Positions 17,992 through 54,530 of a DNA stretch of 64,000 bases are shown here, piece by piece. Position numbers and translations under genes: made by a program. How positions within the stretch are numbered: position 1 is the stretch's first letter; each line of letters opens with the position of its first letter. Source of the stretch: Octopus vulgaris (lineage: Eukaryota). Below the pieces are notes generated by a model. It was not told the origin of the DNA. It worked only from the letters and a program-made list of their open reading frames with translations, and ran no database searches. The stretch is taken from contig OX597822.1 of NCBI GenBank assembly GCA_951406725.2, positions 15,872,001-15,936,000 of the forward strand, given 5' to 3'.

Positions 17992-18152
17992 ATAGTTAAT
18001 CCAAATAAACGAAGAAAAATCACAGGAAAAAGAATAACGCGAGAACGTGGTAAATGTAAAGTATTAGCAAAAGCTCAGAGAAGGAAAGAAAAGTAGTTTT
18101 ACGTTTCTAGCAAAGCTCTTCATCAGAAACAGGAGACAGAGGTAAGTCCAAG
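17992..18152 (-). mobile_element. Short hammerhead-bearing element with 3' end in (TA)n
   Basis: Homologous to the 32751-32915, 33730-33846 and 54372-54530 copies. Confidence 0.8.
18096..18130 (-). ncRNA. Minimal type-I hammerhead motif
   Basis: GTTT CTGATGA A GAGC TTT GCTA GAAA C GTA AAAC (one stem II mismatch). Confidence 0.7.
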
Positions 18153-18320
18153 TCGCCAACGATCCGTATGCAGTTACATTTATATATGTGTGTGTGTGTG
18201 TGTGCGTGTGTGTGTGTGTGTGTGTGTGTGTGTGTGTGTGTGTGTGTGTGTGTGCGTGTGTGAATATATATATGTGGGGCAGGGTGATATTACTATATAT
18301 GTATATGTCTATGTGTTTAT

Positions 18321-18635
18321 GAAGACGCATGGCTCAGTGGTTAGAGCGTCGAGCTTACGGTCGTGAGGTTGTGAGTTCGATTCCCGGACCGGGCTGCGTG
18401 CTGTGTTCTTCAGCAAGACATTTTATGTCAGCTGTAGAAATAAGTTGCGACATCACTGATGCCAATCTGTATCGCCTTTGCCTTTCCCTTGGATAACATC
18501 CGTGTTACGGAGAGGGGAGGCCACTATGTATGGGCAACTGCTAGACTTCCACAAACAACCTTGCCTATACTTATGCCTCGGAGGGTAACTTTCTAGGTGT
18601 AATCCGATGGTCGTTCATGACCGAAGGCGGTTTCC
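18321..18635 (+). mobile_element. tRNA-derived SINE, family B
   Basis: A-box TGGCTCAGTGG, B-box GTTCGATTC; homologue at 48923-49252. Confidence 0.85.
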
Positions 18636-20272
18636 TCCTCCATGTATATTTATATTTATATATTGTTTATGCGTAATTAGAGCATTAGTTATGTACCATG
18701 TTTGGATATAAATAGTCACTGCATTTTATAATACATCTTGAAAATACGAATGTATTTTCTTCATATATTTCGACAGTAACCCCTTCCTTAAACTGTAAAT
18801 ACACAATTCTCTGAATATTGAAAATTACATTAATAATGGCAGAGTTTATAAAGTTCAAATAATTACCGGTTTGCGCCGAGACATTTCTTTCTAGAATTAC
18901 TTTTGCAATTGCTCTCGAAACCACATATAGGAAACTTTAATGAATTTTCAATGAAATTCAATTTTTAAAGATGTTATAATGTTAAAGGCTAAAAGCTTTC
19001 TTAAATACATAAATCCCAATAGATCGTTTAAAAGATTATTTCAGAAAATATGGTTGCTTGTTAAAGTAAAAGAATTGCCACGGAAAAATAAATAATTTTG
19101 AAAATAGCGTACAAGTTTATAGAATTCAAATTATTTAATGTAATATAACACATTAATTTAAATAACTCTAAAACATTTACTCAGTCACTCAATCATTTGT
19201 TTGTGCCAACCTCTACAATCATATGCTTTTAAACATACACCACGCTTACAGATGTATGTATGTATGTATGTATGTACGTATGTATGTATATATGTATGTA
19301 TGCATATATATATATATATATATATATATATATATATATACAATCACACAGTCACACACCATATGAATGTATGTTTCTTCTCTCTTTCTCTCTCACACAC
19401 TAACTCACATGAATACCTTCATGTACACATTCACACGTGTGTGTGTCTGTATGTCCGTGTGTTGAATATGCAGCCATTTGAAAGACTATGCTAGACGTCC
19501 ATCGGTTTGGGTTGCAGTAATCGTTCTTTCTGTCACCATTCTCTATTCAAAAATCTCCGATTCTAAACAAGCCTTTCCTTTTAAGAACCAGAACGTGAAG
19601 GGACACATTTCCTTATCACTCTTCTCTTTCGCATTTCTCCCTCTACTATAATCCCCTTCTGCTCCCCTCCCCGATATGGTCACCTAACCGTTTCCTCCGT
19701 ATAGCTACATGCAGGAGCAGGTTATTCCCTGTGTTACTGAACTTTGGTCAGAAGGGTACAAAGAATAGCACTTCTAGATCTGTTATTTAAAATGTCTAAT
19801 TCTTACATGTATACGATACATTAGTTGTTATATGTTTATATATAAATATGTGTGTGGGGGTTTTTGGTTTTTTGTGTGTGTACCTCTGTATGTATATTCA
19901 TATACACACATACAATAAACAGCATGTATACACACACATATATACGCAGTCCATCTATAGACTTCTTACAAACATAAAGAATATAACTTTGCATATGCAT
20001 TCATGAATGTTGGCTTGCAACATCCTCCTCCGTGTATGTTCATCATAATTATCATCAATACCACTGCATGATAAAGGTCTCTGTCTATCTTATACCTTTT
20101 CTTTATAACCTCCTCTTCCTTCTCCACCTCCTCATCATCATCATTATCAACATTATCATCACTACCACGGCCATCACCAACGTACATACTCTGTCGCCAC
20201 TAACAGTATTGATTTAGCTAAATTCCTATCTTTCTGTATGCCTGCCTACCGATATCTTGAGATCAGGCAGAG

Positions 20273-21352
20273 TAAAATGTAAGCAACGTTTTGAAACATG
20301 AAATTCATCACAATATATTTCAACAACGTGCAAATTTCATTCATCAAAGTAAGTACCATTACAATCAATACACTTTTGCCAACAAGTTACATGTTTGTTT
20401 ACTTCAGTAACATAAAAATATGGAGTTCTGGAGCTAATGGACACTTTCAACGCACTTTCAGCATCGGTTTGATATTTGAATTCCTTCTCTCGCAGGAAAC
20501 CATCAAGGTGCTTGAAAAAGTGGTAGTCGGGTAGGAAAACGTTCAGGGAAATAAGCTAGGTGGGAAAGAACTTCGTAGCCAAATACCCTCAACTTCTGGA
20601 GTGTCATTAGTGAAACGTATGGTCAAGCATTGTCATGAAGAATGATTGGATCTCTTCTGTTGACCAGTCTGGGACGGAGAAGTAGCAGGTTTTCATTCAT
20701 TTTGGCAATTACATGGCAATATGTTTCTGTAGTAATGGTTTTTCTGGGTTTTAAGAAGTTATAGTGGATGAGTCCAGCAGTACACAATCAAGTAGTCACC
20801 ATAATCTTCGGTGCTTCATTTTGGTCCAACCACTGCGAAGAATGTTTTGTATTATTGTACAGAATCCACTTTTCATTGCAAGTTACAATACGGTCAAGAG
20901 ATGGATCTGTCTGGTTACAGAGAAGGAACGACGAACAATTTTCCTATCTGCGCATTTTCTGATTTTCATTCAACTCGCTTGGCACCCAATTGTCAAGCTT
21001 TTTTTGATTTTCTGATCGCATGCAAATGGTTACAGGCACTTTTCTGGCTCATTTGAAGTTTTCTTGTCAGTTCTCGGATGGTTTTACGTGTATCATTCTC
21101 AATGTCAGTCTTTAATTGACCGTCATCGATGACAGATGGGCGTCCACGACGCTCACGATCTTCAAGGTTCAGGTCTCCACTACGAAATTGTTTAAACCAT
21201 TTTCGAGATGACCATTCACTGTTCGTTTCCTCACCAAAAACGTTTCGTTGATATCGCAATCAGTTTCAGCTGCTTTACGTCCTTTTTTGAAGTTGAATAG
21301 CAAAATTGTTCGAATATCGTGCTTTGTCAGTTCCATTTCAGATGATTGTAAC
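20273..21352 (-). mobile_element. Mariner (DD34D-type) transposon with near full-length transposase pseudogene (ATG at 21336)
   Basis: MELTKHDIRTILLFNFKKG, KWFKQFRSGD..GRPS, WVP, IVTCNEKW, LHDNA and DYHFFKHLDGFL motifs. Confidence 0.9.
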
Positions 21353-21357
21353 AACTA

Positions 21358-52715: not shown

Positions 52716-52862
52716 GCGTTACCATGATATATACGTATACACACAGACATATATACATACACACACATATATGTATATATATATATATATATATATATAT
52801 ATATAGTTGTGTGTGTGTGTACGCATGTATTCCTAAATATGTTCATATTATAAATGTATATA

Positions 52863-53722
52863 CGAGATCTGATCGATAAGTATCCGGACTGTTGCCATAG
52901 TAACAAAGCTGAAGCACGCAGAGTAAAGACGCTTGGCACAAGTTGACCTTCACCTCTGCTGTGCATGTACACTAAGTTCTAACGTCCTACCTCACTTCCC
53001 CTGTTTACAGCATTGATTGGACGCAACGTGTGTGACGTGTGTTTGTCGCACTGACCATGACAGAAAACGTTGTCATGGCGATACCTGCTCAGAGGCCTAC
53101 GCAAAGTTGCAGAAAGTGTATGAAGTGGTGTGTATAAGTTCCAACAGAATTACATGAATGGTTCAGACGTTTCCCAGATGGCCGAAAAAATGTCAGTAGT
53201 GAGGAATGTTCTTGGAGACCTGCGACCAGCAGAACTGAGAAAAATATCGCTGATGTGCGTGTAACTGTGAAAGGCAATCGTCGAATCACTACCCGTGAGT
53301 TATCAGAGGATGTGCAGATTAGTTAAGGTTCAGTTCACTCCATTATCTTTAATGATTTGGGCATGAGACGCGTGTCTGCCAAGTTTGTGCCAAAACTACA
53401 TTCAGCTGACCAAAGAGACACTCGGATTTCAGTTGCACAAGATCCTGATTGTGTCGAGAACGATGGAAACTTTTTGACAACTTTTCATAGGCCTCTGAGC
53501 AGGAATCGTCAAGCTTTTGGCAAACTTTGATGCAGATTCTCTACTCAGCTTTCTCCTTCATGGCCAAGGCGACGATCACATGCTACACATGTTAATTCCA
53601 AGCACTGCTGTAAACAACAAAAGTTAGCTGGAACGTTAAAACTTTGTGCAAATGCACAGCAGAGTTCATGCTTTAGTTTCGTTACTATGGCAACAGTCCG
53701 GATACCTATTGATCAGACCACG
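52863..53722 (+). mobile_element. Non-autonomous mariner derivative with ~250-bp inverted arms and TA TSD, copy 2
   Basis: TA|cgagatctgatcgataagtatccggactgttgccatagtaac ... gttactatggcaacagtccggatacctattgatcagaccacg|TA; HTH and RVSAKFVPK only. Confidence 0.9.
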
Positions 53723-53904
53723 TACATATCAATTCACCCATCCCTAAAAGCACAGAAAAATATATCTAGCTAGCTTCACTTTTGAACTATTTTACATCTT
53801 TTCAACAGACACTCATTATATCAATATGCAGGCGTGTGTGTATGTGTGCATTTGTATCCGTATGCGTTATGTTCGTATGCTTTTGTGTTCGTATCCGAGC
53901 ATTC

Positions 53905-53965
53905 AACGTTGTTTCATATTATTTAACGTTGTTTCATATTATTTAACGTTGTTTCATATTATTTA
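53905..53965. repeat. Perfect 3x 20-bp tandem repeat aacgttgtttcatattattt
   Basis: Direct reading. Confidence 0.95.
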
Positions 53966-54371
53966 GACAGTAAAATACAAGATGATGTCACGTCATGTGA
54001 TATGTGATGTCACCTCCATTGATAACATTTTTATATTTGATATCACATTGACATTTCACAATGACACAGATTTTTCCAGTCGTGTGAATTCTACAGAATT
54101 TCATTTTCAATTTCGAATGTACAAGAACATTTATACCAAAAGGGTTTTCTGTTCTTAAACTTAAATTGCAACGCTTCTATTATAATGCAAGATAACACGG
54201 GATCTCAAATGATACTCCCAATCTTTATTCATTGAGTGCCGAGTCGTAGTTTTCTTCCGATTCTCTTTAAATAATATGTTTTCGTTTGTTTTACTTTAAA
54301 ATGTATTTTATTTCAAACTGGTATGCAACAGAGCACTACTTATTTATTTCATTTCAGTCATTTATTTTCTA

Positions 54372-54530
54372 TGTGGACATTCCCCTGTCTCCAGTTTCTG
54401 AAGAAGAGCTTTACTCGAAACGTAAAACACCCTTTCTTTCCTTCCCTGTGCGTCTTATTAATACTTTGAAAGCTCCCCGTACTCGCGTTGAAGGATTTTT
54501 ATGTCTTTTTTCTCCGTCTTTTTTATTACG
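54372..54530 (+). mobile_element. Short hammerhead-bearing element ending in (TA)n
   Basis: Homologous to the reverse complement of 17992-18152. Confidence 0.8.
54394..54428 (+). ncRNA. Minimal type-I hammerhead motif with intact core
   Basis: GTTT CTGAAGA A GAG CTTTA CTC GAAA C GTA AAAC; predicted cleavage after A54424. Confidence 0.75.

Follow-up and report, generated by a model that had tools for sequence, protein, structure and literature searches.

We analyzed a 64,000-nucleotide (nt) stretch of the Octopus vulgaris genome (assembly GCA_951406725.2, contig OX597822.1, positions 15,872,001 to 15,936,000), here called the window, which contains several copies of a short repeat with a minimal hammerhead ribozyme motif. 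A preliminary description had listed six copies and a tail-only copy, and had read them as solo terminal repeats or retrozyme-like elements that are mobilized by a Penelope-like element (PLE) into (TA)n. We located copies with blastn and with an nhmmer profile; core positions are given in hammerhead numbering (such as C3 and N17). All seven copies were present where they had been described, and the profile found exactly seven in the window. They belong to two families, which we call lineages A and B: the copies at 54372 (+), 32751 (-), 17992 (-), and 33730 (-) are from A, with a G-C pair in stem I, and the copies at 35365 (+) and 47476 (+) and the tail at 28820 are from B, with C-G. As argued below, we take them to be the 3′ ends of PLEs.

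The best-kept motif in the window is a minimal type-I hammerhead at 54394-54428 (+), within a lineage A end at 54372-54530 (+) that has the canonical core and is followed by (TA)n at 54531-54582. Cleavage is predicted after A54424, and this previously proposed position agrees with the location of C3 (54398); the outer pair of stem II is broken. The other lineage A ends with a canonical core are at 32751-32925 (-) (C3 at 32874, N17 at 32848; the first stem I pair is broken) and at 17992-18170 (-), which is older (C3 at 18126, N17 at 18100; the G10.1-C11.1 pair is broken; (TA)n at 17943-17988). The fourth, at 33706-33851 (-), is cut within stem II and lacks the 5′ part of the core; (TA)n lies at 33662-33705. 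Both longer lineage B ends have the family core CTGTNGA with further decay. One, at 35360-35516 (+), has the A6U core of its family plus private changes (C3 at 35396, N17 at 35423; (TA)n at 35517-35534). The other, at 47476-47673 (+), is decayed (C3 at 47545); it interrupts the remnant of a retroelement without long terminal repeats (LTRs) and has perfect 12-bp direct repeats on both sides, which are target-site duplications at 47464-47475 and 47674-47685 (+). The tail at 28814-28903 (+) is from the youngest lineage B subfamily, begins downstream of the hammerhead, and is flanked by TA tracts. Thus, the layout that was said to be common to the copies was overstated: CTGAWGA is present in just three of the six (54372, 32751, and 17992), always with a single broken stem pair, and no copy in the window is perfect. 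In an Rfam scan, the best 150 of 177 matches included no hammerhead, just microRNA noise that is driven by repeats. When five of the window copies were folded as single strands, the z-scores (-0.1 to -1.3) were uninformative, which is expected for a motif of the dimer type. We found no remnant of a PLE open reading frame (ORF) in the window itself.

The octopus genome is 2.8 Gb and is rich in microsatellites. The profile search found 18 copies in 59 evenly placed 10-kb stretches, or about 30 per Mb, which extrapolates to roughly 85,000 copies genome-wide (with a Poisson range, from these 18 matches, of about 50,000 to 135,000). The preliminary estimate of several copies per 64 kb is true of the window, but the window is about 3.6-fold above the genome average. 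In 101 of 119 copies picked by pattern, the 3′ end is directly followed by (TA)3 or more, versus a background of 14%, so docking in (TA)n holds for most of the genome copies, although the window copy at 47476 is not in such a tract. In thirty genome copies per family, the 3′ end is constant, at about 100 nt past the motif, and the 5′ end is variable; across the 119 copies, 5′ ends lie from a few bases to 1.36 kb upstream of the core, and the longest copies reach into an ORF. A neighboring motif within 1.5 kb is on the same strand for 10 of the 119 and on the opposite strand for 16, and the same-strand spacing is irregular. This pattern fits 5′-truncated, target-primed insertion with PLE-type inversions, and not tandem retrozymes. 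We also considered whether copies begin at the cleavage site, but we saw none that do: one long copy begins 10 nt before it, and the others are scattered.

The proposed link to PLEs was borne out by extending both families upstream, which reached ORFs with reverse transcriptase (RT), zinc-finger, and GIY-YIG regions: full-length RT/GIY-YIG elements end in the same tails. Of the extended loci, 15 of 30 from lineage B and 5 of 30 from lineage A (4 of them colinear) matched a PLE protein, and protein searches of the genome found many long open frames. In the 18 lineage B loci with long ORFs, frames counted from the first Met reach about 970 codons and include DKG, YIDD, CX4CXXC, and GIY-YIG motifs; in 4 of the 18, the hammerhead motif is in both pseudo-LTRs (pLTRs), 4,465 to 4,567 bp (about 4.5 kb) apart. 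Five lineage A loci have a stop-free frame of 1,008 or 1,009 codons, and in four of the five, the hammerhead motif occurs at each end, with about 6.2 kb between the two. Across the two lineages, the motifs of the long ORFs are DKG, YIDD, CX4CXXC, and YIG/YVG. The ORFs of young elements are 96 to 99% identical at the DNA level in B and 99.7 to 99.8% identical in A, and between the two lineages, the proteins share 68% identity over 728 residues. RVT_1 from Pfam scored above its cut-off, and GIY-YIG was weak (below the cut-off in element L154, above it in L078). There are 535 homologues with an identical domain set; when we sought longer homologues with the endonuclease fragment, we found none. 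Both lineages therefore have the features of an endonuclease-containing (EN+) PLE, that is, a single ORF with RT plus GIY-YIG at its C terminus, and pLTRs in partial tandem. They also have a CX2-5CxxC linker upstream of GIY-YIG, which is a mark of Neptune or Nematis (PMC8557442). The 3′ untranslated region (UTR) is long and of low complexity (about 0.9 kb in B and 2.9 kb in young A). In the youngest A elements (L424, L428, L433, and L440-L444), it is CA-rich and has two conserved GC-rich islands, which may be structured RNA or promoter elements. At another locus (L034, oriented positions 218-1400), there is the end of a different PLE ORF and, behind it, a decayed motif of its own that resembles a minimal hammerhead but has other stems; an inserted family B copy lies just downstream.

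We then compared the cores. With stem II and GAAACGT fixed and the core varied, exact patterns matched the genome 19,297 times for CTGTNGA, 9,409 times for CCGANGA, and 5,231 times for CTGANGA, and each reversed control gave 0 matches. Lineage B corresponds to the first of these (CUGUNGA, or A6U) and the youngest A subfamilies to the second (U4C); the CUGANGA core is found in older A subfamilies and in the three window copies, but not in B or young A. The canonical count may be inflated by CTGACGA copies that derive from CCGACGA through CpG decay; decay on the opposite strand was seen among the A copies described next. Patterns from the flanks alone, which pick copies regardless of their core, matched 28,224 times for B (control, 2,248) and 9,139 times for young A (control, 8). 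From 30 loci fetched per pattern, U6 was present in all 28 true B copies and C4 in 24 of 30 A copies. Among the long-ORF loci, every B motif has U6 (one of the 18 loci lacks a motif), and all five young A loci have U4C. Similarly, when we clustered 174 of 311 copies, chosen regardless of core, we obtained five B and three A subfamilies (41 of the 174 fell into small clusters, which we excluded); all of the B subfamilies have U6. When ordered by divergence, the A subfamilies run from CUGAAGA (0.080) through CUGACGA (0.065) to CCGACGA (0.047), and the 99.7%-identical A elements have an additional U-U mismatch in stem I. In an older B group, position 6 was U in about 79, C in 14, A in 6, and G in 1 of the 100 copies listed, as counted by eye; the C6 copies have the variant that was examined by Perreault et al. 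and are possibly a separate subfamily. Two divergent copies (L306 and L294) have a C4 core with different stems and tails, and their sequences suggest that U4C arose more than once.

Overall, we consider it very probable that these repeats are the 5′-truncated 3′ ends (pLTRs) of two autonomous PLE lineages, mostly inserted in (TA)n, and that their minimal hammerhead core has been changed in the youngest families, by A6U or U4C, with cutting likely weakened.

The changed motifs retain most of the hammerhead. They have stems I and II, an extra base after A9, and GAAA-palindrome-UH, with one stem I mismatch in the youngest A subfamily; no subfamily has lost C3-G8, G5, G12, A13, A14, A15.1-U16.1, the palindrome, or the NUH site, and stem I has a fifth pair in the youngest B subfamily. 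Stem I covariation, which had been reported from the window, is real at one pair (9 G-C, 9 C-G, and 1 G-U in 19 hand-picked rows). Across the five core-independent subfamilies of lineage B, just 1 of 22 constrained positions varies, compared with 30 of 82 columns of the downstream flank (Fisher P = 0.002, which is rough as the columns are not independent). The positions that do change are N7 (all four bases) and N17 (A or U, with the majority never G), which are the positions that are free in hammerheads. Also, in contigs from four public runs with four organism labels, only N7 and N17 vary within the core at 10% or more, although contigs cannot show RNA ends. In folding of a 42-nt window, a predicted pair between U6 and A15.1 closes the core (pair probability of 0.98, versus 0.02 to 0.12 for other bases); with longer flanks, the probability is 0.78 in the youngest subfamily and at most 0.27 in the others. 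The idea that U4C and A6U both strengthen one closed pairing was rejected, as U4C had no such effect in folding. There is a looser trend for core-to-core pairing to increase in young subfamilies; it was seen in five clusters but not in the B clusters with A or G at N7, and is weaker with longer flanks.

Published work indicates what these changes could do. U-turn single mutants had low activity and were not rescued by second mutations (PMC9901934); a natural A6C hammerhead had an observed rate constant below 0.1/min; and U4C reduced activity in vitro yet was tolerated in an infectious viroid (PMC3088659). On the basis of such mutagenesis, U-turn changes would be expected to lower activity, so the successful A6U and U4C families probably have attenuated cleavage. 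PAc is the one PLE that has been reconstituted; its hammerhead requires the element's protein for cutting, and hammerhead mutants were not impaired for insertion in vitro (PMC11167929). From known PLE biology, we would expect the octopus protein to nick AT-rich DNA and to prime reverse transcription within the RNA, at a point that lies downstream of the hammerhead by about 100 nt. Most of these reactions would stop after 150 to 230 nt and leave stubs. In a full-length transcript, the two pLTR motifs could pair through the ACGU palindrome and be cut. Lone stubs would have no partner in cis and would probably be mostly inert, since cutting by minimal hammerheads is weak and requires a dimer (PMC4209133). 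The earlier suggestion that the repeats scatter self-cleaving RNA motifs through the genome is thus doubtful: judging from sequence, most of the exact copies have noncanonical cores and lone copies would lack a dimer partner. For the young families, we favor, at about even odds, a reading in which selection still maintains the fold but not strong cleavage; strong cleavage might not be selected because the uncut RNA is the template, which would leave lineages with damped ribozymes free, or favored, to amplify. We more tentatively propose that two PLE lineages in one genome independently turned the hammerhead into a noncutting or protein-switched RNA element, with the fold selected and the U-turn disabled (by A6U, with its predicted closing of the core, or by U4C). 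In that case, the disabled versions would be the ones that amplified most recently, and the genome would hold a dated natural series from ribozyme to vestige.

With the same PLE origin, the A6U and U4C motifs might instead be working ribozymes that are rescued by dimer formation or by the element's protein. All of the catalytic positions, the palindrome, and the NUH site are kept, and the youngest B subfamily has five stem I pairs. Furthermore, variant cores may still cut, since PAc cuts with protein assistance (PMC11167929) and the U4C variant of the viroid suffices in vivo (PMC3088659). We consider this possible but doubtful, given the poor activity of U-turn mutants without rescue (PMC9901934), the U-U mismatch in stem I of the youngest A motif, and the predicted U6-A15.1 pair. 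Conversely, the ribozyme might be dead and decaying, with the segment conserved for another reason (a protein-binding hairpin, a promoter, or a DNA signal) or simply because too little time has elapsed for change. Position 6 varies in the older B group, lineage A departs from the canonical core in steps, loop II is also invariant in B although the hammerhead does not need it, and Naiad PLEs thrive without hammerheads (PMC8557442). However, the flank columns changed while the constrained positions did not, and change at N7 and N17 is the pattern of hammerhead constraint, so this explanation seems unlikely. The original reading, a dedicated short nonautonomous element (a solo repeat or retrozyme) that is mobilized in trans and spreads self-cleaving RNAs, now seems highly improbable. 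It would account for the sizes of most copies (150 to 230 bp) and for a soft 5′ edge 70 to 90 nt upstream of the core. But the 3′ ends are fixed, the 5′ extents are continuous up to the ORF, the tails match the ORF-bearing elements subfamily by subfamily, and with a same-strand second motif for just 10 of 119 copies, there are no regular tandem arrays.

Besides the possibility that the variant cores cut, several observations weigh against our reading of the repeats as truncated PLE ends with altered, weakened hammerheads. About 100 of the 119 copies have their 5′ end 30 to 95 nt upstream of the core, and because of this pile-up there is room for a short, semi-independent element. Stem II is invariant in the 19 hand-picked rows, so it gives no covariation. 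In lineage A, the test of constrained positions in core-independent copies was not significant (1 of 22 versus 14 of 67 in three clusters, P = 0.065). In the tree of lineage B, which is not reliably rooted, the rare A6 copies are nested and not basal, so the order of changes within B cannot be read from it, and the direction of A6U rests on lineage A and on the published consensus. Finally, exact patterns undercount old, decayed canonical copies, and our survey covers lineages A and B, with PLE families that have other stems falling outside it.

The window also contains other repeats. Non-LTR retroelement remnants, which are presumably R4/Dong-like, are at 47030-47860 (-), where the PLE copy at 47476 splits the remnant, and at 38662-39069 (-); they have a CCHC knuckle and a restriction-like endonuclease end but no Pfam match. 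Open frames at 5513-6564 (+) and 21691-22452 (-) resemble pieces of retroelements, which we take to be of the L1/Tx1 type. Long, near-perfect inverted repeats at 27093-28091, 3520-4119, and 16278-16577 (with arms of 305, 169, and 138 nt, respectively) are probably fold-back elements or similar to miniature inverted-repeat transposable elements.

Minimal hammerheads in truncated PLE ends are already published. A 2017 study by Lunse et al. is reportedly about PLE hammerhead variants that cleave as dimers. We found no published report of A6U (CUGUNGA-type) or U4C cores in PLE hammerheads, in a search that stopped short of that study and of the supplements of PMC8557442, which may list such cores. 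Nor did we find a report of hammerheads in octopus or other cephalopods or of degenerate cores in young PLE families, and a term search of an octopus repeat annotation (PMC13282606) gave no mention of ribozymes. The role of the hammerhead in PLEs has been called unclear (PMC8557442), and it is dispensable in vitro (PMC11167929). Here, a single genome has an age-ordered natural series of cores, and because near-intact young elements carry A6U or U4C, natural alleles could be used to test the hammerhead's role. Should the variants prove to cut, A6U would be a new active core of high copy number; if they do not, this would show selection for the fold of a ribozyme without catalysis. In practice, a search descriptor with CUGANGA fixed would leave undetected about 85% of the motifs that matched our exact patterns in lineages A and B.

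These repeats can be compared to several known systems. Animal non-LTR retrozymes (bioRxiv 10.64898/2026.07.22.740005) also have type-I hammerheads in short, PLE-related repeats, but they are described as tandem arrays with a hammerhead in each unit, whereas the octopus copies are dispersed truncations of coding elements; we did not find tandem units that each have an intact hammerhead. Neptune/Nematis-type EN+ PLEs (Craig et al. 2021, PMC8557442) share the single ORF, the RT, the CX2-5CxxC linker, and GIY-YIG, and also, as far as they are described there, pLTRs in partial tandem, inverted neighbors, and targeting of microsatellites; the octopus elements resemble them in linker and layout, and have a long, low-complexity 3′ UTR. 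The closest match to the motif itself is the minimal type-I hammerhead of metazoan PLEs (Cervera and de la Pena 2014, PMC4209133), with a U-rich flank, a stem I of 4 to 5 bp, an extra base after A9, G10.1-C11.1, GAAA-CG-UH with palindromic ACGU, a location in pLTRs, and mostly single motifs from truncated PLEs. Unlike that set, the octopus motif has a short stem II (4 bp), and whereas the alignment rows in that source have only CUGANGA or U3 variants (its descriptor fixed the core), the dominant and youngest octopus families have A6U or U4C. The same U-turn positions are altered, with the remaining core kept, in the A6C hammerhead of phage Bcep176 and the U4C hammerhead of a viroid (Perreault et al. 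2011, PMC3088659). Those are presented as rare single examples; in the octopus, such variants are the norm in tens of thousands of copies from recently amplified elements, and the base at position 6 is U.

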